From: a virus
Direction: 5' to 3' (one strand)
DNA length: 64,000 nt
IMG/VR virus record: IMGVR_UViG_3300046832_000578
The notes under the pieces are model-generated. The model ran no database searches and had not been told where the DNA came from. It saw only the letters and a list, made by a program, of their open reading frames with translations. Position 1 is the stretch's first letter; every line of letters begins with the position of its first letter. Below, in pieces: positions 8,551 through 64,000 of this stretch. Position numbers and translations under genes: made by a program.

Positions 8551-9159
8551 ATGAATTTTACTGAGGTTATACCTTTTGTTACACCACTATATGTAATAAC
8601 TGATTTGAATTATAATTGTATTTTTGAAGATGTCCAAGATATTAAAAATACAACAGGTCACTTCAACTATAGATACAACAATAATGGAAAACAAACATCT
8701 AATTTAATTGACACTACCTTATCCCAACAATATACTGATATTAATAGTTTATTAAATTATTCAGGTGAACTATGTTCTTCTATGCTATCCAGATGGGGAT
8801 TAAATAGAAAGGTAGAATTAACTAATTGGTGGATTAATATTGATGGTGATAGTAACTATTGTTCTACACATATGCATCCAGGTTCGATAATTAGTGGGGT
8901 GTACTATATTAATGTTCCTGAGGGATCAGGTGAAATAGAATTTGAACGACCAGATCCACTAGTGCATTATTTTTATGCAGAAGAACCAAATGAAACTTCA
9001 TACACAATTTATAAAGTTCAACCACAAAAAGGTATGATGATATTATTTCCTTCATACATAAAACATAGAGTTATAGAAAATAAATTTAAAGATAAATCGC
9101 TAGAAAGAATATCCTTAGCGTTTAATTATTCGTTAATACATTCAGATAGAGAAAAATAA
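8551..9159 (+). CDS. Putative 2OG-Fe(II) oxygenase (TIGR02466-like)
   Basis: WININ...HMHPGSIISGVYYI...LFPSYIKHRV...RISLAFN. Confidence 0.85.
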   Translation: MNFTEVIPFVTPLYVITDLNYNCIFEDVQDIKNTTGHFNYRYNNNGKQTSNLIDTTLSQQYTDINSLLNYSGELCSSMLSRWGLNRKVELTNWWINIDGDSNYCSTHMHPGSIISGVYYINVPEGSGEIEFERPDPLVHYFYAEEPNETSYTIYKVQPQKGMMILFPSYIKHRVIENKFKDKSLERISLAFNYSLIHSDREK

Positions 9160-9161
9160 TT

Positions 9162-9446
9162 ATGGCACATTTTAGAGTTTGCATGACTGGCGGTGAGGGT
9201 ATTTTTACCGACGACCAGATTGTTAAAGGAACCTGCACAGATTCTCCAGAGGTTAATTCAGAAATACTACATGTATGGACTACCTTTATGGAAATTGCAG
9301 AAGATGAAAATAAAAAGACTGGACATAAAATTACTGGTTTTATGATGTATGTAAATAATAAAAGAGTTCAAATAGAATATTGGGATCCATTTAATAATAT
9401 TACTATGGATCAATATGACCCTGATAGATTTAAAATGAAAAAGTGA
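9162..9446 (+). CDS. Hypothetical protein
   Basis: 94 aa ORF packed tightly between two oxygenase genes. Confidence 0.6.
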   Translation: MAHFRVCMTGGEGIFTDDQIVKGTCTDSPEVNSEILHVWTTFMEIAEDENKKTGHKITGFMMYVNNKRVQIEYWDPFNNITMDQYDPDRFKMKK

Positions 9447-9458
9447 AAGTGAGATTAA

Positions 9459-10037
9459 ATGTTAGAAGAAATTATACCATTTGCAACTAAAATTTATGTG
9501 TATAGAGTGACACAACCATATAAACACTTGGTTGAAAATATTAAACAACTTAGAGATAGTATTCCAGATGAACACAACATTGGAGCGTCCAATCGTGGTG
9601 GGTGGCAGAGTAAGTATTTTGACTATGGAACACAAGAATGGATTAAAGATATTTTACATGAAATAGCACCACAAGTTACAAAAATTTATAAAGACTATGG
9701 AATAAAACGAGATGTTAAATTAGGTAATTATTGGTTTAACATCAATAAAAAATATGATTATAACATCGCCCATTCTCACCCATGGACTAACATTGTTGGG
9801 GTTCTTTATATAAAAGTGCCAAAGGATAGTGGAGTTCTTAAATTAGTTAGACCTGATGAATGCCAAGAATGGTTAGTTCCAGACGAATTGTCTGAAATTA
9901 ATGCTGGTAACTTTGGAATTGTTCCAGAAGAAGGAATGTTAGTTTTATTCCCAGCATATCTTAAACATTATGTGGAACAGAATAGAACCGAAGACGAGAA
10001 TGACGAAAGAATATCCATATCATTTAATTTTAATTGA
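9459..10037 (+). CDS. Putative 2OG-Fe(II) oxygenase (TIGR02466-like)
   Basis: SNRGGWQS, WFNIN...HSHPWTNIVGVLYI...LFPAYLKHYV...RISISFN. Confidence 0.85.
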   Translation: MLEEIIPFATKIYVYRVTQPYKHLVENIKQLRDSIPDEHNIGASNRGGWQSKYFDYGTQEWIKDILHEIAPQVTKIYKDYGIKRDVKLGNYWFNINKKYDYNIAHSHPWTNIVGVLYIKVPKDSGVLKLVRPDECQEWLVPDELSEINAGNFGIVPEEGMLVLFPAYLKHYVEQNRTEDENDERISISFNFN

Positions 10038-10045
10038 GAAATATT

Positions 10046-10630
10046 ATGAAACAACAAATACCAAATACTACATGGGGTTTAGAAGTAGATACAGTTTCCA
10101 GGTGGGCATATGCTGAAGGTTTATTTACTAATGAAGAGTGTGATCAGATAATAAAACTTGGATATGAATATGAGTTAACTAAATCAGTGACTATTGGTGC
10201 AAGTTCTGAATATAGAGATAGTAGATCGGTCTTTCTAGAACCAAATCCAGATACAAGTTGGATTTATAAAAGACTCACAGATGCTGTTATGGAACTTAAC
10301 TCCAAATTCTTTAATTTTGATTTATTCGGCTTTACTGAAGGATTGCAGTTTACTGAGTATACCGCTCCAGGCGGAAAATATAACCCTCATATTGATAAAC
10401 TATACCTAAAATCTATCAGGAAACTTTCCATTACAGTTCAATTGACAGATCCAAATGAATATGAAGGTGGAGATTTTGAAATACTTGATGAGGTTCCAGG
10501 AGAAAAATTAAAAAGAACTCGTGGAACTTTACTAGCATTTCCAAGTTATACTTTACATGCAGTTACTCCAGTAACTAAGGGAACTAGAAACAGTCTAGTT
10601 AGTTGGATTAGTGGTAAACCTTTTAGATAA
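10046..10630 (+). CDS. 2OG-Fe(II) oxygenase, prolyl 4-hydroxylase/PKHD type
   Basis: FTNEECDQII, LQFTEY, YNPHID, RKLSITVQL, YEGGDF, FPSYTLHAVTPVTKGTRNSLVSW. Confidence 0.9.
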   Translation: MKQQIPNTTWGLEVDTVSRWAYAEGLFTNEECDQIIKLGYEYELTKSVTIGASSEYRDSRSVFLEPNPDTSWIYKRLTDAVMELNSKFFNFDLFGFTEGLQFTEYTAPGGKYNPHIDKLYLKSIRKLSITVQLTDPNEYEGGDFEILDEVPGEKLKRTRGTLLAFPSYTLHAVTPVTKGTRNSLVSWISGKPFR

Positions 10631-56433: not shown

Positions 56434-58919
56434 TGGAATTTTACACAAGCGTCCATCCACTGGGCGATAAGATACTCGTTAGAGGGTACGATAAAGGAAG
56501 AGCATATCAGCGTAAGGTAGATTTCTACCCTACGCTTTTTGTCACTTCTAAGAAGCAATCTAAGTGGAAGACTTTGGATGATACATATGTTGATGAAGTA
56601 AAACCTGGAACGATTAAAGATACAAGAGAGTTTGTCAAACGCTACGAAGATGTAGAAGGTTTTGCTGTGTATGGTAATACCAATTACGCATATCAATATA
56701 TCAGCGACACTTATCAAGACGATGTCAATTGGGACATGGAACAAATCAAAGTATTCACCATTGACATTGAGACTGCCACTGAGAATGGATTCCCAGATAT
56801 CCGTAGTGCCAATGAAGAGATTCTTCTAATCACAATTAAGAATCTACAAACGAAAAACATTATCACCTTTGGCACTAAGCCATATGAAAACAAACGAGAA
56901 GATTGTCAGTATGTTTATTGTCGTGATGAACAACAACTACTAAAAGAGTTTATCATTTGGTGGCAACAGAACTATCCAGATTGTATCACTGGTTGGAATA
57001 CAGACTTCTTTGATGTGCCATATCTTATCAAACGATTGGACAGAGAACTTGGTGATTCATTCTCCAAGAAAGTTAGTCCATGGGGTTACATCAATGAACG
57101 CAAGACATTCATTAAAGGCAACGAAGAACTTCACTATGACATTCTAGGTATTTCTCAACTAGACTATCTCGAACTTTATAAAAAATATACATATACAAAG
57201 CAGGAGTCTTATCGTCTGGATTATATCGCACAAGAAGAACTTGGTGATAAGAAGAAAGAGAATCCAGGAACAGACTTTAAAGATTTCTATACAAACTATT
57301 GGGATAAGTTTGTTGAATATAACATTCACGATGTGGAGTTAGTTGATCAACTCGAAGACAAGATGCGTTTGATTGAACTGCATCTGACTATGGCATACAA
57401 TGCTAAGATTAATCCTGAAGATGTTTACTCACAAGTTCGTATGTGGGATACTATCATCTACAATCACCTGCGTAAGAAAGGTATTGTTATTCCAGCAAAG
57501 ACTTCTTCAGGTAAAGATGCACAGTTCGAAGGTGCTTTCGTTAAAGATCCAATTATCGGTATGCATAAATGGGTAGCATCCTTTGACTTAAACAGTTTGT
57601 ATCCGCACTTGATTATGCAATACAACATTAGTCCTGAGACCCTGACCAGTGAGAAACTCTCTGTCACAGTTGATAAATTGCTTAATCAAGAAGTGGATAC
57701 ATCTTATATTAAACGAAGAGATCTAACTCTGACTGCAAATGGATGGACATATCGTAAAGACATCAAAGGTTTTATGCCTGAGTTGATGGAGCATATGTAT
57801 GTTAATCGCTCCAAGTTTAAAAAACAGATGTTGAAAGTTGAACAAGAATACCAAAACGATAAGACAAAGGTTCATCTATTAAAAGATATTTCTCGTCTAA
57901 ACAATCTGCAGATGGCGATGAAGATTGCTCTTAACTCTGCTTATGGTGCGATGGGTAATCAATACTTCCGTTACTTTGATATTCGTATGGCTGAAGGTAT
58001 TACCACTTCTGGTCAGTTATCCATTCGTTGGATGGCAAACAAACTCAATGCATTCCTCAACAAAACTCTCAAGACAGAGGGTAAAGATTTCGTCATTGCC
58101 ATTGATACAGATTCGATCTATCTAACATTGGAAGATTTGATTGAGAAGGTTTGTGAAGGTAAAACTACTGAACAGAAAATCAAAACAATGGACAAGATCT
58201 GTGAAGAAGTTTTTCAACCATTTATTGATCAAGGATATGATGAACTTGCTGACTATATGAATGCGTATGGTCAGAAGATGCAAATGAAACGAGAAGTACT
58301 GGCTGACAAAGCAATCTGGACTGCCAAGAAACGATATGTTATTAATGTTCATAATTCGGAAGGAGTGCAATTTGCGAAACCTAAAATCAAAGTTATGGGT
58401 TTGGAGATGGTCAAGTCGTCTACACCTGCGGTTATTCGTGACAAACTTAGGGATTCGTTACAAGTTATTCTTGCTGGCGATCAAAAAGACCTACATACAT
58501 ATGTAACAGCATTTAAGAAAGAGTTCGATAAACTTCCAGTGCATGAAGTAGCATTTCCTCGTGGTGTGAATGGTATGAAACAGTATGCTGGTTCTCCGAT
58601 TTATACAAAGGGAACACCAATTCATGTTCGTGGTGCGTTGCTCTACAATCATCACTGTAAGCGTATGGGACTAGATAAAAAGTATCAACCAATTCGTGAT
58701 GGTGATAAGATTAAGTTTGTTTATGTTCGTACACCAAACCCTCTGCAAGAAGATGTGATTGCTTTTAGTCAGCATCTTCCAAAAGAGTTTGGACTGGAAG
58801 CATACATAGATTATGATAAACAATTTGAAAAAGTATTTCTTGATGCTCTACAGATTGTTATTCAACCACTAGGTTGGAAGACTCAAGAAGAAAGTTCATT
58901 GGAGGATTTCTTTGGCTAA
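56433..58919 (+). CDS. gp43: DNA polymerase, family B (gp43)
   Basis: Exonuclease DIET, GWN..FFD, YN..D; polymerase SFDLNSLYP, KIALNSAYG, IDTDS, KKRY; C-terminal SLEDFFG. Confidence 0.98.
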   Translation: MEFYTSVHPLGDKILVRGYDKGRAYQRKVDFYPTLFVTSKKQSKWKTLDDTYVDEVKPGTIKDTREFVKRYEDVEGFAVYGNTNYAYQYISDTYQDDVNWDMEQIKVFTIDIETATENGFPDIRSANEEILLITIKNLQTKNIITFGTKPYENKREDCQYVYCRDEQQLLKEFIIWWQQNYPDCITGWNTDFFDVPYLIKRLDRELGDSFSKKVSPWGYINERKTFIKGNEELHYDILGISQLDYLELYKKYTYTKQESYRLDYIAQEELGDKKKENPGTDFKDFYTNYWDKFVEYNIHDVELVDQLEDKMRLIELHLTMAYNAKINPEDVYSQVRMWDTIIYNHLRKKGIVIPAKTSSGKDAQFEGAFVKDPIIGMHKWVASFDLNSLYPHLIMQYNISPETLTSEKLSVTVDKLLNQEVDTSYIKRRDLTLTANGWTYRKDIKGFMPELMEHMYVNRSKFKKQMLKVEQEYQNDKTKVHLLKDISRLNNLQMAMKIALNSAYGAMGNQYFRYFDIRMAEGITTSGQLSIRWMANKLNAFLNKTLKTEGKDFVIAIDTDSIYLTLEDLIEKVCEGKTTEQKIKTMDKICEEVFQPFIDQGYDELADYMNAYGQKMQMKREVLADKAIWTAKKRYVINVHNSEGVQFAKPKIKVMGLEMVKSSTPAVIRDKLRDSLQVILAGDQKDLHTYVTAFKKEFDKLPVHEVAFPRGVNGMKQYAGSPIYTKGTPIHVRGALLYNHHCKRMGLDKKYQPIRDGDKIKFVYVRTPNPLQEDVIAFSQHLPKEFGLEAYIDYDKQFEKVFLDALQIVIQPLGWKTQEESSLEDFFG

Positions 58920-59463
58920 TATCAGAGTAATTAAAAAAGGAATAAATGTATCCAAGATACTGAAACAATTACATCAGTATCCAGAGGATTGGGGTGCTCA
59001 GAAAAACATTGATGGTGTAGGAGATCTTGTAGACGATTGCGGATTCCCTGCAGTTGAAGCAGGTGTTCTACAGTTAGTCATGGGAGTTGTCTCATCTAAA
59101 GATCAGTATGTGGGTGATAGTGAGATGTCTGCATCAACACCTGCATATAGTCATCATACAGAAATTATTTCATTCTTAAAGAGACACTTCAAGAAATTTG
59201 ATAGGTGTGGATTCTTATCATTACCCATTGCTGGTGTCGTTGGTCAACATATTGATATTGGATCTTACTATCAAACACGAGATAGATATCATCTTGCAAT
59301 TCAAGGTGCATATGATTATACAGTTGGAGGAGAGACTGTAAGAGTAGAAGAAGGTGACTTGATTTGGTTTGATAATAAACAATCACATGGAACAAAGAAT
59401 GTTGGAGATGCTGTAAGAATTACATTTGTGTTTGATGTTCCGCATGCCAAGAACAATCCATAA
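58912..59463 (+). CDS. Aspartyl/asparaginyl beta-hydroxylase-like 2OG-Fe(II) oxygenase
   Basis: VGQHIDIGSYY...RYHLAI, WFDNKQSHGTKN...RITFVFD. TTG start. Confidence 0.8.
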   Translation: MANIRVIKKGINVSKILKQLHQYPEDWGAQKNIDGVGDLVDDCGFPAVEAGVLQLVMGVVSSKDQYVGDSEMSASTPAYSHHTEIISFLKRHFKKFDRCGFLSLPIAGVVGQHIDIGSYYQTRDRYHLAIQGAYDYTVGGETVRVEEGDLIWFDNKQSHGTKNVGDAVRITFVFDVPHAKNNP

Positions 59464-59756: not shown

Positions 59757-60830
59757 ATGAGCATACTAGACAAAATTAAAAAGAATACAACAATCAAAGA
59801 TTCAGCAATTCTTGCTCAATCAAAATTCTTCGCTAAGAAGGACATGATTCCAACCTCAGTACCAATTATCAATGTGGCTTTATCTGGTCGTCTTGATGGT
59901 GGATTAGTTCCAGGATTGACGATGTGGGCTGGTCCAAGCAAGCACTTTAAAACTGCTTTCTCTTTGCTTATGGCAAAATCTTATTTGGACAAGTATGAAG
60001 ATGCAGCGTTATTGTTTTATGATTCTGAATTTGGTACTCCTCAGTCTTACTTTGATACCTTTGGTATTGATACTAAGCGAGTGCTTCACACTCCTGTTAC
60101 AGATGTTGAACAACTCAAGTTTGATATCATGCAGCAACTGTCAACCATCGAGCGTGGAGATCACCTCATTATCGTCATTGATTCGATAGGAAATCTCGCT
60201 TCCAAGAAAGAAGTAGAGGATGCATTGGACCAGAAAGCAGTTGCTGATATGAGTCGTGCAAAGCAGATGAAGAGTTTGTTCCGTATGGTTACACCTCATT
60301 TGTCCATGAAAGATATTCCACTTGTTGTAGTGAATCATACATATAAAGAGATTGGTCTTTATCCTAAAGACATCGTTGGTGGTGGTACTGGTTCTTACTA
60401 CTCAGCGGACAACATCTTTATTCTTGGTCGTCAGCAAGAGAAAGATGGAACTGAATTAACAGGTTACAATTTTATTATTAATGTTGAGAAGAGTCGTTAT
60501 GTTAAAGAAAAATCTAAGATACCTGTTAGCGTATCTTTTGATGGTGGTCTTAGTAAGTGGAGCGGTTTGCTTGATATTGCTCTTGAGTCCAAACATGTGG
60601 TCAAACCATCCAATGGTTGGTATTCCAAATGTGATCCAGTTACAGGAGAAGTAGAAGAAAAGAAATATCGTTTGAAAGATACTGACACTAAAGAGTTCTG
60701 GTTACCACTTCTTACAGATAAAACATTTTATGACTATGTCAAGAACAAATATTCAATGGGTCAGGGTGATATGATTAGAGCAGATGAGTTGGATAAGGCA
60801 CTTGAGGAATTGGAATTCGATGAAGAGTAA
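59757..60830 (+). CDS. uvsX: RecA-like recombinase UvsX
   Basis: INVALSG, AGPSKHFKT, FYDSEFG, IDSIGNLASKKE, VNHTY, GGTG.YYSAD, KSRYVKE. Confidence 0.95.
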   Translation: MSILDKIKKNTTIKDSAILAQSKFFAKKDMIPTSVPIINVALSGRLDGGLVPGLTMWAGPSKHFKTAFSLLMAKSYLDKYEDAALLFYDSEFGTPQSYFDTFGIDTKRVLHTPVTDVEQLKFDIMQQLSTIERGDHLIIVIDSIGNLASKKEVEDALDQKAVADMSRAKQMKSLFRMVTPHLSMKDIPLVVVNHTYKEIGLYPKDIVGGGTGSYYSADNIFILGRQQEKDGTELTGYNFIINVEKSRYVKEKSKIPVSVSFDGGLSKWSGLLDIALESKHVVKPSNGWYSKCDPVTGEVEEKKYRLKDTDTKEFWLPLLTDKTFYDYVKNKYSMGQGDMIRADELDKALEELEFDEE

Positions 60831-61152
60831 TTTACCCATAATTGTTACAGAAAACAAACACAATGGACTTCAAGCAATTAAATTGACAGAAGGTGCATTT
60901 GAGGGTATAATTTATACCTATGGGAAAGTTAGTATTGATGCAGATGAAGAGAATGATAAGATTCATCTAAAATTTGAATATGAAATTCTTGATTATGCGG
61001 ATAAAGGGTTGACAGACATGAAACCTTTTGAAGCATACATAGGTAAGATACTTGAAGGATTAATCCACGAGGGTGTCGAAGAAAATAATTTAACATACAC
61101 AGGCGGAGTTGATGAGAATAGAACAGAAGATTCTAAGCAATCTGATACATGA
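60820..61152 (+). CDS. Hypothetical protein at the gp40 position
   Basis: G.FEGIIYTYGKV...LKFEYEI; lies between uvsX and gp41. Confidence 0.6.
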   Translation: MKSNLPIIVTENKHNGLQAIKLTEGAFEGIIYTYGKVSIDADEENDKIHLKFEYEILDYADKGLTDMKPFEAYIGKILEGLIHEGVEENNLTYTGGVDENRTEDSKQSDT

Positions 61153-62500
61153 TGAGCATTATTGTCGTAAGGTAATTCCGTTTCTAAAGAAAGAGTATTT
61201 CACAGATCGTAAAGAAGCAATCCTTACAAGTGAGATTGTTTCCTTCTTCACAAAATACAACAAACCTGCAACAAAAGAAATTCTATCTATTGAAGTTGGA
61301 AATAGAAAAGATCTTAATGACAAAGAGTTAGTTGAACTTGCCGATTATATCGGTAGTTTAAATCATGAGCCAGTTAATGAAGACTGGATGCTAGAAAACA
61401 CTGAGAAGTTTTGTAAAGATAGAGCGGTTTATAATGCGATCCTTAATTCAATTAGTATCATCGATGGGCGAGACAAAATTCATACTAAAGATGCGATACC
61501 TAGCATCCTTAGCGATGCACTCGCTGTTTCTTTTGATAATCACATCGGTCATGACTATCTGGATGACCACCTTTCGAGGTTTGATTTTTATCACAGGGTT
61601 GAAGAGAAAATTCCTTTCGACCTTGACATGTTCAACAAAATCACCAAAGGTGGACTCTCAAAGAAAACCTTAAACATCGCACTTGCTGGCACTGGTGTTG
61701 GTAAGTCATTGTTCATGTGTCACATGAGTGCTGGTTGTTTGACACAAGGTAAAAATGTTTTATACATAACTATGGAAATGGCAGAAGAAAGAATCGCTGA
61801 GAGGATTGATGCGAATCTCTTGAACCTTACCATGGATGAATTGAAAGTTATTGATAAGGATATCTTTGAATCTCGTATCGCAAAGATTACAAGTAAGACT
61901 AAAGGTAAACTAATTGTCAAAGAATATCCAACTGCAAGTGCTCACTCTGGGCACTTTCGTGCATTGCTGGAAGAATTAAAACTGAAACGAGACTTTAGAC
62001 CTGATATAATCTTCATTGATTATCTTAACATCTGTGCGAGTCAGCGAATGAAGCAAGGTGGAAGTATTAACTCTTATACATATATTAAGGCAATCGCAGA
62101 AGAGTTGAGAGGTTTGGCAGTAGAGTATAATGTGCCAATCGTTTCAGCAACTCAAACAACTCGTTCTGGGTATACAAATTCAGATCCAGGACTAGAAGAT
62201 ACGAGTGAATCATTTGGTTTGCCAGCGACCGCTGACTTCATGTTTGCTTTGGTCAGCAATGAAGAATTAGAAGCGTTAAATCAAATCCTTGTAAAACAAT
62301 TAAAGAATCGTTACAACGATCCTAGTTTTTACAAACGATTTGTGATTGGAATTGATAGAGCAAAGATGAAATTGTATGACACAGAAGCATCTGCTCAAGT
62401 TAATATAAGTGACTCTGGTCAAGATGATGAGCCAGTGTTTGATAAGAGTAGTTTTGGTCGCAGACAAAAAGCAGAATCATTCGAGGGATTTAAGTTTTAG
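61112..62500 (+). CDS. gp41: Replicative DNA helicase gp41
   Basis: AGTGVGKS, YITMEMAEE.IAERIDAN, IVKEYPT, FIDYLNI, SATQTTR, SESFGLPATAD, KQLKNRY. Confidence 0.96.
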   Translation: MRIEQKILSNLIHDEHYCRKVIPFLKKEYFTDRKEAILTSEIVSFFTKYNKPATKEILSIEVGNRKDLNDKELVELADYIGSLNHEPVNEDWMLENTEKFCKDRAVYNAILNSISIIDGRDKIHTKDAIPSILSDALAVSFDNHIGHDYLDDHLSRFDFYHRVEEKIPFDLDMFNKITKGGLSKKTLNIALAGTGVGKSLFMCHMSAGCLTQGKNVLYITMEMAEERIAERIDANLLNLTMDELKVIDKDIFESRIAKITSKTKGKLIVKEYPTASAHSGHFRALLEELKLKRDFRPDIIFIDYLNICASQRMKQGGSINSYTYIKAIAEELRGLAVEYNVPIVSATQTTRSGYTNSDPGLEDTSESFGLPATADFMFALVSNEELEALNQILVKQLKNRYNDPSFYKRFVIGIDRAKMKLYDTEASAQVNISDSGQDDEPVFDKSSFGRRQKAESFEGFKF

Positions 62501-62509
62501 GAGAAAGAT

Positions 62510-63823
62510 ATGGTAAAAGTTATTGTAGCAAAACAGAAACATGATATGACTCATATGTTGGGACAGTTCCCTGATGAGTCGCATTATGATCATCTTATCG
62601 AGGAAGATACAGATGTATACATGCCAGAGATTCCAGGACATCCAGAGATGACATTCTCTGAAGAGAGGATTGTTCTGAAGTTTCGTAAGAATTATTTTAC
62701 AAAAGAACAACAAGACCAAGCATACATTGGACTTCGTGAAGCTGCAACTGAGACGCAGAATCGTGGACTTGCAGCTGGACCAAGAGCAGAGAAGTTAGGT
62801 AATCGTGAATGGGTCACTGAGTATGAATATGACATCGTTGATTACTTCAGTAATCCCAAAGCCAATCTATTTGGTGAAGATCCAATTGAAGCAATTCGTC
62901 AGGCACATAAGAACAAGAAGCCATCTCCGTCTAATCGTAATAATGTTTGGGGTATTTCTACTGTAAAGAAAGACAACTTCGTCTTTGAAGACTGGGTTGA
63001 AGCAACAAGAAAACTTTCTGAGAATGAAATGCGTGCAGAAGCAAAACGAGTTGCTGAGAAATATATCTGTGCAACAACCTATGCCAATGGTGTGTTCTCT
63101 GGTATTGCTGGATGGTTCGATCGTTATCCTCGCATTCCTTATGGTCGTGCAACATCTTATACTGCGAATCATCCAGACAAATTTGCTATGGCGTATCCAT
63201 TCCTACAGCAACTTGCACAGGGTTTTAAAGATCTGTTGCCATGGAGATATGGTAATCAGATGGAAGCAGCAAATAAAATGGATCCTCGTTTCTTAGTTCC
63301 AGAAACTCCATTCACTACTGTCACTGTGAATAGATCTTTTAGAACTGCGTGTCACTTTGATGCAGGTGACCTAACTTCTGGTCTATCAAATCTACTGACA
63401 TTATCAAACAATGGTAATTATCGTGGTTGCCATCTTGTTGCACCAGAGTATCGTGTCGCAGTAAATCCCAGACCTGGAGATCTACTTTTGATTAACAATC
63501 ATGAAGTAATGCATGGTAATACTCAGATTGAATTGCTTGATGATGTGGCAGAGAGAATTTCATTGGTTGTGTACTTCCGTGAGAAGATGCTTGAGTTAGG
63601 ATCTAAAGAGTATGAAGATTGTCGTTTTGACTTTGTTGAATCTCGCAGACTTAATAAAGAACATCCAGAACAACGACCATTGTGGAATGGTGTATCACCA
63701 TCAATGTGGGATTCTAAAGAATGGTTTGATTATCTAGAATCAAAACTAGGTACAGAAGTATTGAACAAGTATCATCCACCAAAGACTACAACTGTTAATG
63801 CACTCGAGGAGTTCTTCGGATAA
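62510..63823 (+). CDS. TET/JBP-family 2OG-Fe(II) DNA base dioxygenase
   Basis: PFTTVTVNRSFRTACHFDAGD (HxD), G.HLVAPEYRVAVN.RPGDLLL...HEVMHGNT (distal H), ERISLVVYFREKM (2OG-binding R); C-terminal LEEFFG. Confidence 0.85.
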   Translation: MVKVIVAKQKHDMTHMLGQFPDESHYDHLIEEDTDVYMPEIPGHPEMTFSEERIVLKFRKNYFTKEQQDQAYIGLREAATETQNRGLAAGPRAEKLGNREWVTEYEYDIVDYFSNPKANLFGEDPIEAIRQAHKNKKPSPSNRNNVWGISTVKKDNFVFEDWVEATRKLSENEMRAEAKRVAEKYICATTYANGVFSGIAGWFDRYPRIPYGRATSYTANHPDKFAMAYPFLQQLAQGFKDLLPWRYGNQMEAANKMDPRFLVPETPFTTVTVNRSFRTACHFDAGDLTSGLSNLLTLSNNGNYRGCHLVAPEYRVAVNPRPGDLLLINNHEVMHGNTQIELLDDVAERISLVVYFREKMLELGSKEYEDCRFDFVESRRLNKEHPEQRPLWNGVSPSMWDSKEWFDYLESKLGTEVLNKYHPPKTTTVNALEEFFG

Positions 63824-64000
63824 TGTGTGCCGTAATTGGAACAATCATTCAGAATCCTTCAACAAAGGATTTTGAAAATCTACTTCGTGTATTCCATGAG
63901 TCTAAGATTCGTGGAATGCATGCTACAGGAATCTCATATGTTAAGCATGGTAAAATCCATACTGAGAAACACCCAGTGCCAGCTAATAATTTTCCTTTTG
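63823..64000 (+). CDS. Class II (Ntn) glutamine amidotransferase-like protein, 3'-truncated by the window edge
   Basis: Not in the ORF track. MCAVIG...ESKIRGMHATGISY: Cys2 nucleophile and RG..A.G motif; start overlaps the TET/JBP stop (TAATG). Confidence 0.75.
   Translation, partial: MCAVIGTIIQNPSTKDFENLLRVFHESKIRGMHATGISYVKHGKIHTEKHPVPANNFPF

Follow-up and report, generated by a model that had tools for sequence, protein, structure and literature searches.

Evidence pointing to the amino acid:DNA transferase as the partner of a stand-alone glutamine amidotransferase in a probable phage thymidine-hypermodification operon

A stretch of 64,000 nucleotides of viral DNA (IMG/VR virus record IMGVR_UViG_3300046832_000578; the whole stretch is called the window below) ends inside a gene for a glutamine amidotransferase (GATase) that overlaps the end of a TET/JBP dioxygenase gene. 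The rest of this gene and the genes downstream of it were read from metagenome contigs encoding exactly the same TET protein as the window. We found that the locus is best explained as an operon for post-replicative thymidine hypermodification, with the GATase gene in second place, and that the phage is an uncultured, T4-like one (37% G+C). In this operon, the TET and GATase genes are followed by genes for a GNAT-family enzyme, an amino acid:DNA transferase (AADT), a protein of 131 amino acids (aa) and a kinase of 5-hydroxymethyl-deoxyuridine (5-hydroxymethyl-dU, 5-hmdU) in DNA. Four lines drawn from sequences and structural models, namely natural fusions, minimal cassettes, a predicted complex and a signature of interface residues, point to AADT as the enzyme served by the GATase. 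Based on these lines, we lean towards the hypothesis that glutamine-derived ammonia replaces the amino acid as the nucleophile of AADT, which would give 5-aminomethyl-dU that is then acylated by GNAT.

The genomic linkage of the GATase was investigated in two scans of IMG/VR. The first, with the full-length protein (P0001) as query, gave 79 loci at 45-97% identity. All 74 of these close loci that had upstream sequence contained TET; its gene immediately preceded the GATase gene in 73 of them and lay downstream of it in one (L089). AADT and kinase genes followed the GATase gene wherever the contig was long enough. The second scan, seeded with divergent GATases, gave 78 further loci, which were searched with hidden Markov models built from the cassette proteins; TET (73), AADT (72), GNAT (71) and kinase (63) were frequent, and an Amidoligase_2-like gene was present in 37. 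The cassette position of the GATase was kept over the 157 loci, at 32-97% identity. The coupling to TET/JBP that the first-pass annotation had proposed from a single junction is therefore found in other genomes as well (74 of 74 close and 73 of 78 divergent loci). In two of the 78 divergent loci, TET was replaced by a ThyA-like enzyme and HMUDK/HMUD2.

The smallest cassettes and the fusions bear on the partner of the GATase. One minimal cassette (L105) consisted only of TET, GATase, AADT and kinase, and two others (L104 and L096) likewise had neither GNAT nor amidoligase; the cassette of L096 contained only a GATase-AADT fusion, two HMUD2 genes and one ThyA-like gene. Thus, the presence of the GATase is independent of GNAT and amidoligase. 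In four diverged natural fusions (P0239, P0277, P0278, and P0279), an N-terminal GATase is followed by a C-terminal AADT, which is 37-43% identical to the AADT of the window lineage. All four occur in TET-less clusters that have a ThyA-like enzyme and HMUDK/HMUD2 instead, and the GATase therefore travels with AADT, not with TET. TET, suggested as a partner by its constant adjacency, was ruled out because the GATase persists, fused to AADT, in these TET-less clusters.

The predicted complex of GATase and AADT had an ipSAE of 0.87 (runs of 0.88, 0.83, and 0.87), against 0.00 for the best control; contacts agreed by at least 98% among the runs, and the partner pLDDT was at least 90. For comparison, 58 of 80 solved complexes and 2 of 110 mismatched pairs attained this score mark, counts that hold only roughly for this complex because our own alignments were used. 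The GATase surface in the predicted complex is the active-site face (including residue 1, the invariant R30/G31/H33, Y79-T81, G101, Q105, R166/P167, and S181). On the other side, 13 AADT residues at the predicted interface make up a signature (R39, E41, N43, E45, Q46, N68, E69, F70, P71, D72, R80, G280, and I281). These residues hardly varied among 135 GATase-linked AADTs and the four fusions, and they were not kept in seven GATase-free AADTs of cultured phages (M6, PaMx11, the ViI-like SKML-39, Cr30, Cygsa01, VPALA, and Montesquieu).

The genes of the operon, in the window and beyond its end, are as follows.

Window 62510-63823, plus strand: TET/JBP-family Fe(II)/2-oxoglutarate dioxygenase, 437 aa (Pfam Tet_JBP, E 4.6e-25, residues 228-358).
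Window 63806-63811, plus strand: GAGGAG, candidate ribosome-binding site of the GATase gene, inside the 3' end of the TET gene.
Window 63823-64000, plus strand: GATase ORF (open reading frame), first 59 codons, MCAVIG...SKIRGMHATG, 3' end open at the window edge.
L005:10621-11313: full GATase gene, 231 aa (P0001), the continuation of the window frame.
L005:11303-11941: GNAT, 213 aa (P0002; Pfam Acetyltransf_1, 26.8 bits, cut-off 20.7).
L005:11944-12960: AADT, 339 aa (Pfam ADDT, PF18724, E 1.7e-19).
Beyond the window end, between AADT and kinase: 131-aa ORF without a Pfam match.
L004:14041-14646: 5-hmdU DNA kinase, 202 aa (Ploopntkinase3, PF18751, E 7e-12).

The stop codon of TET/JBP (TAA, 63821-63823) and the start codon of the GATase (ATG, 63823-63825) have one base in common (TAATG), and the GAGGAG lies 12 nucleotides upstream of this ATG. 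In the ORF listing, the GATase frame is given as 63823-63999 on the plus strand (59 codons), and the nucleophile Cys2 falls within the window. The ORF that the first-pass annotation had read across the TET/JBP stop and off the window is real; starting at the ATG at 63823, it continues to 231 aa in contig L005, which is 99.975% identical to window positions 60001-64000 (L008 is equally near). The gene order TET, GATase, GNAT, AADT, 131-aa ORF, and 5-hmdU DNA kinase was identical in six of six contigs. The cassette genes abut or overlap by a few bases, and they thus form a single operon, located behind a gp41-like helicase; the start of a base hypermodification operon had been suspected at this junction, and the GATase proved to be its second gene. 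The motifs HFD...HGN...R are visible in the translation of the TET/JBP protein, the first gene of the cassette, which is predicted to be a thymine dioxygenase making 5-hydroxymethyl-dU in finished DNA. In an alignment, E241 and C245 of AADT fall on the ETxLC motif found in M6 gp51 and the ViI-like AADTs; the matching Glu and Cys were shown to be essential in M6 gp51 and ViI gp247 (PMC8989533). A megablast of the window end against cultured phages gave only matches of 71-76%, to cyanophage primase-helicase.

The product of the gene is, judging from its sequence and its model, a stand-alone class II (N-terminal nucleophile, Ntn) GATase and not GlmS, PurF or AsnB. On its own, the 59-aa fragment in the window had no Pfam match, whereas the full-length protein (the near-identical L004 copy) matched GATase_6 (42.3 bits, cut-off 27) and GATase_7 (27.5 bits, cut-off 25). 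An AlphaFold model built from an alignment of 54 relatives had a pLDDT of 95.7, and in Foldseek it matched the glutaminase domains of PurF and GlmS (E 3e-11 to 4e-10, TM about 0.7), with PurF 1ao0 at E 3.2e-11 and TM 0.70 and GlmS 1xff also among the matches. Cys2, R78 (in HCRYST), N100-G101 (in HNG), and D124 (in NDTE) were invariant in the 54 diverse family members and aligned with the GlmS motifs; their predicted roles are those of nucleophile (C2), carboxylate clamp (R78), oxyanion hole (N100-G101), and alpha-amino clamp (D124). The Met1-Cys2 start lies in the window, and Cys2, named in the first-pass annotation as the residue with which Ntn amidotransferases release ammonia from glutamine, is invariant throughout the family. 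Homologues were found in 1862 of the clusters at 90% identity (E<=1e-3) and in 755 clusters at 50% identity, and almost all of the latter were 200-250 aa long. In cultured phages, the nearest homologue of the full-length GATase was 28.6% identical, and the cassette GNAT had no homologue there at all.

Another explanation would be an ordinary role as auxiliary metabolic gene: the protein would be a truncated glutaminase of the PurF, GlmS or AsnB kind, would promote nucleotide or amino-sugar metabolism of the host, and would be encoded beside TET by chance. Homologues are indeed annotated as "glutamine phosphoribosylpyrophosphate amidotransferase", and distant phage homologues are labelled GlmS. 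However, the 231-aa protein ends without a GlmS, PurF or AsnB synthase domain or any further Pfam domain, so that the ordinary enzyme considered in the first-pass annotation is not what is encoded here. The identity to solved GlmS and PurF is weak, a PDB sequence search giving marginal GlmS matches only (E 0.06), and the metabolic explanation also leaves aside the cassette position kept over 157 loci and the existence of fusions with AADT. The neighbourhood data refute it for practical purposes, and we regard it as very improbable.

Two groups of phage amidotransferases were compared with the GATase. Those of BroderSalsa and CW02 were rejected as close relatives: the tblastn matches of the 59-aa fragment were weak, the proteins are longer, and they belong to different amidoligase/ATP-grasp clusters. 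In Bruynogheviruses (PaP3, LUZ24-like, and others), a distant stand-alone class II GATase of ~210 aa (~24% identical) routinely bears the label GlmS, and this protein probably represents a further glutaminase that depends on a partner.

Which base is modified was investigated in a relative with a complete genome (G002, 100% complete, 163.6 kb). ThyX was present, and searches of this genome found no ThyA-family hydroxymethylase, no C5-methyltransferase (PF00145), and no amidoligase. The earlier remark that no DNA methyltransferase or glycosyltransferase was visible beside the GATase holds, and PF00145 has no match in the complete relative either. Since ThyX is present and TET is the sole visible route to a hydroxymethyl pyrimidine, thymine is indicated as the TET substrate. 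From gene content, the oxidation target thus appears to be thymine, not cytosine, and the combination of TET and ThyX without a ThyA-like enzyme fits post-replicative thymine oxidation. It was proved by O'Toole et al. that phage TET/JBP enzymes can be thymine dioxygenases (PMC13229309). ParB_N (PF02195) had no Pfam match in G002 and three other records, nor in the cassette proteins, and the cassette is, as far as the Pfam profile reaches into divergent ParB proteins, a ParB-less, amidoligase-less form of the published cassette class. Among cultured phages, TET homologues 42-48% identical were observed in DLP6 (L001:6001-7347), Cr30 (L002:6001-7329 and 9027-10256), and C48C1 (L003:5938-7356); their labels, "SNF2 DNA repair protein" or hypothetical, look like misannotation. 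In Cr30, AADT lies 1.7 kb downstream of TET, there is no GATase match, and the AADT is without the interface signature; this phage may hypermodify thymine with a different nucleophile.

What is demonstrated is the family assignments and the conserved residues, and from these we infer each chemical step of the pathway. ThyX would make normal dTMP, as shown in relatives, so that thymine enters DNA. There, TET/JBP, going by its family and context, would oxidise thymine to 5-hydroxymethyl-dU, and the P-loop kinase, a homologue of characterised 5-HMUDKs, would phosphorylate 5-hmdU to 5-PmdU. In AADT, by homology to the M6 and ViI enzymes, the conserved Cys (C245, with E241) would attack C6, the phosphate would leave, and an exocyclic methylene would form. 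The new step would follow at this point: the GATase docked on AADT would hydrolyse free glutamine at Cys2, and the ammonia would attack the methylene to give 5-aminomethyl-dU. GNAT would then acylate the new primary amine, most simply to 5-acetylaminomethyl-dU, and the amidoligase of sister lineages would further acylate or amidate the side chain. In standard amidotransferase logic, the acceptor is activated by phosphorylation and then attacked by ammonia. The proposed route matches this general pattern because a phosphorylated acceptor would be attacked by channelled ammonia, and the AADT methylene intermediate is known to accept outside nucleophiles (PMC8989533). An aminated pyrimidine formed by oxidation followed by nitrogen transfer had already been suggested in the first-pass annotation, and the same outcome is our preferred reading of the chemistry. 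To the oxidation and nitrogen transfer named there have to be added two steps not visible in the window, phosphorylation of 5-hmdU by the kinase and displacement of the phosphate by AADT, which make oxidation followed by amination chemically plausible. It seems to us an even proposition that GATase and AADT form a two-subunit, glutamine-dependent "DNA amidotransferase" (a single chain in the fusions) that would convert 5-PmdU to 5-aminomethyl-dU in one step, GNAT and amidoligase then diversifying the amine into a family of N-acyl thymidine hypermodifications among abundant, uncultured T4-like phages.

Several observations weigh against the hypothesis that ammonia is delivered to AADT and the amine then acylated. 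The GATase is also fused to GNAT (P0274 and P0275) and to amidoligase (P0140 and P0276), and fusion thus marks a common pathway, not necessarily an ammonia channel; the genes joined here are neighbours, and the fusions could also stem from frameshifts in assembly. The complex score may be inflated by fused relatives seen by the folding model. The interface signature is partly phylogenetic, the GATase-linked AADTs being at least 36% identical to one another versus 15-28% to the GATase-free AADTs. In a BLASTP comparison, the cassette GNAT had no specific similarity to gp48, the 5-NmdU acetyltransferase of PaMx11 (E 8.3). As for the first step, some ParB-less clade C1 TET/JBP enzymes had no activity on T or 5mC in assays (PMC13229309). 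Finally, R78 and D124 would be equally kept in an EgtC-like gamma-glutamyl hydrolase, and EgtC was among the fold matches.

The last point leads to a different function for the same fold. As an EgtC-like Ntn hydrolase, the protein would act on an intermediate bound to DNA and split its gamma-glutamyl amide, for instance by trimming glutamine or a glutamyl group that AADT had attached. Glutamate would be released, and the base would keep an amine or a shorter side chain. It is like EgtC of the ergothioneine pathway in being a stand-alone class II GATase-like protein of ~230 aa with a structural match (4zfl and 4zfj, E about 4e-10, TM 0.63), and the residues holding the glutamyl alpha-amino and alpha-carboxylate groups would be conserved for this function too. 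However, the top fold matches were PurF and GlmS, and in the four fusions the domain precedes the acceptor domain, which is the arrangement of canonical amidotransferases. The Cys2 face is buried against AADT in the predicted complex; this suits gas transfer and would hinder a DNA-borne substrate. The glutamine amide nitrogen is, in general, a poor nucleophile for the AADT step. EgtC itself hydrolyses a small-molecule gamma-glutamyl amide and has no ammonia acceptor, whereas the phage GATase has a transferase as its fusion partner or predicted docking partner. We consider the hydrolase function quite unlikely.

Alternatively, the ammonia might serve a carboxylate-amidating enzyme: AADT would install an amino acid in the style of M6, PaMx11 or ViI, and its carboxylate would be converted to an amide, yielding an amidated base. 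The distribution of amidoligases gives this proposal its strength, for an Amidoligase_2-like gene (PF12224) directly follows the GATase gene in 37 of the 78 divergent cassettes, two fusions (P0140 and P0276) join the two proteins, and GATase and amidoligase are paired in unrelated phage clusters, for example in BroderSalsa and CW02. The cassette of the window lineage, on the other hand, has no amidoligase, and none was found anywhere in the complete genome of G002, yet the GATase keeps all catalytic residues; the minimal cassette of TET, GATase, AADT and kinase (L105) and the clusters with GATase-AADT fusions are without an amidoligase as well. An amidated base is therefore an unlikely product in our view, and delivery of ammonia to AADT remains the reading that we prefer.

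The association of these gene families is not new. Lee et al. (2021) showed that 5-HMUDK phosphorylates 5-hmdU in DNA, that AADTs displace the phosphate via a Cys-C6 adduct and an exocyclic methylene, and that 5-acetylaminomethyl-dU in PaMx11 arises via glycine transfer, an FAD lyase and a GNAT; they also described metavirome clusters in which TET_JBP replaces the hydroxymethylase (PMC8989533). O'Toole et al. (2026) describe GATases, P-loop kinases and AADTs as genes with which a ParB-linked subclass is "consistently linked" (PMC13229309). The novelty assigned to the locus in the first-pass annotation was consequently too high, since TET/JBP, GATase, kinase and AADT had been associated in print; for the GATase itself, these accounts left the role open ("functions are not yet known"; Lee et al. 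2021; O'Toole et al. 2026; PMC8989533, PMC13229309). The window cassette resembles the published metavirome TET_JBP/5mYOX clusters in combining TET_JBP, GATase (PF13522/PF13537), kinase PF18751 and AADT PF18724, and in belonging to uncultured phages without a dUMP hydroxymethylase and C5-methyltransferase. In these papers, the genes are tied mainly to a ParB-dependent dioxygenase subclass (the ParB-dependent 5mYOX subclass of O'Toole et al. 2026), whereas the complete relative of the window phage has no Pfam match to ParB_N. The type of cassette is thus already known, and what is new here is the evidence on the job of the GATase: its pairing with AADT through fusions, minimal cassettes, complex and signature is not in the published cassette accounts that we compared, Iyer et al. 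(2013) being outside this comparison.

Among characterised systems, PaMx11 (gp46 AADT, gp47 FAD lyase, gp48 acetyltransferase, and gp49 5-HMUDK) is similar in that a kinase, an AADT and a GNAT-family enzyme act on 5-hmdU in DNA, and both pathways would end in an N-acylated 5-aminomethyl-dU, predicted to be the same base or a similar one. The two differ in the origin of 5-hmdU, which PaMx11 makes before replication with a ThyA-like hydroxymethylase and the window cassette would make with TET after replication. They also differ in the origin of the amine: PaMx11 uses two steps, glycine transfer and FAD-dependent cleavage, in contrast to the single GATase step proposed here, and no FAD oxidoreductase corresponding to its FAD-dependent glycinyl-thymine lyase was found among the cassette proteins. 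The AADTs of PaMx11 and the window lineage are about 15% identical, and the predicted interface differs. With PurF, GlmS, AsnB and GltS, the GATase has in common the Ntn fold, the Cys1 nucleophile, and the glutamine site of Arg, Asn-Gly and Asp; in those enzymes too, the glutaminase precedes an acceptor domain in the chain or docks on it, and the substrate of that domain is phosphorylated or adenylated. Unlike in these enzymes, the glutaminase here is a separate polypeptide, and a helix-hairpin-helix-type transferase would hold the proposed acceptor, a nucleobase in polymeric DNA. No amidotransferase with a DNA nucleobase as acceptor is described in the literature that we compared. A parallel exists in tRNA modification by MnmEG, where a C5-methylene uridine intermediate takes either glycine (cmnm5U) or ammonium (nm5U), a choice that mirrors glycine-using versus ammonia-using AADTs; however, MnmEG acts on tRNA, its enzymes and cofactors are unrelated, and it has no glutaminase subunit. 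The parallel with cmnm5U was drawn in PMC8989533.

Cassettes varied in their additional genes. Between GATase and AADT, variant cassettes carried extra tailoring genes (L061:8727-10147, L088:2975-5452, L069:10173-11459, and L073:10190-11737), which encode Amidoligase_2-like proteins, low-molecular-weight phosphotyrosine-phosphatase-like proteins, GT1 glycosyltransferases, and proteins of 428-515 aa without Pfam matches; this suggests a family of related yet distinct final bases. In some near-identical relatives, a gene for a 2OG-FeII_Oxy_5 oxygenase of 201-205 aa stood between TET and GATase (L014:2399-3004, L040, and L054), and in L004 (6336-6953) it was located between a cupin gene and thioredoxin. 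The window is without it at both places, and the gene has the appearance of an accessory oxygenase gene that is mobile or variable. In L012 (2423-3151) and about a dozen other loci (gap of ~670 bp), GNAT and AADT were separated by a 242-aa ORF with no match in Pfam; it was absent from L005 and so presumably from the phage of the window. Directly after the kinase, ~4.7 kb past the window end, a conserved 238-aa protein (L004:14671-15387) was considered as a hidden ParB or core member and rejected, being present in only 7 of 78 divergent cassettes. It carries an invariant MHELIHF (HExxH) motif and had no Pfam or PDB sequence match; its model (pLDDT 90) gave weak fold matches to an HExxH-domain oxygenase (8s5f, E 0.011), ArdC and SPRTN. 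That it clears stalled AADT-DNA adducts is pure speculation.

Several proteins of the locus end in similar C-terminal tails, SSLEDFFG in the DNA polymerase (58896-58919), NALEEFFG in TET (63797-63820), PSLEEFLV in GNAT (L005:11921-11941), and NGLEIFA in AADT (L005:12940-12960); the GATase and the kinase have no such tail. The GNAT homologues of amidoligase-type cassettes also end in L-[DEN]-x-[FIL]. In sequence, the tails of polymerase, TET, GNAT and AADT resemble the clamp-binding tail of T4-type polymerases, and a tail-less GATase would fit a protein riding on AADT. A cupin/Asp-Arg-hydroxylase-like protein of 183 aa is encoded at window positions 58912-59463, overlapping the end of the DNA polymerase gene.

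Thymidine hypermodifications shield the DNA of phages against nucleases, those of restriction among them, and their pathways are a source of enzymes for DNA chemistry. The hypothesis presented here names a likely partner of the GATase (AADT), a likely substrate (5-PmdU in DNA), a nitrogen source (the glutamine amide), and the expected nucleosides (257 u for 5-aminomethyl-dU and 299 u after acetylation by GNAT). The GATase family is abundant (1862 clusters at 90% identity, with contigs of up to 187 kb), so that one would expect the modified base to be common where the samples were taken. If the hypothesis is true, the cassette would install an amine handle on DNA in a single enzymatic step, as an alternative to the glycine-plus-lyase route of PaMx11. 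It would also extend the amidotransferase principle to a DNA-polymer acceptor, as the first case in which a nucleobase in polymeric DNA accepts the ammonia.

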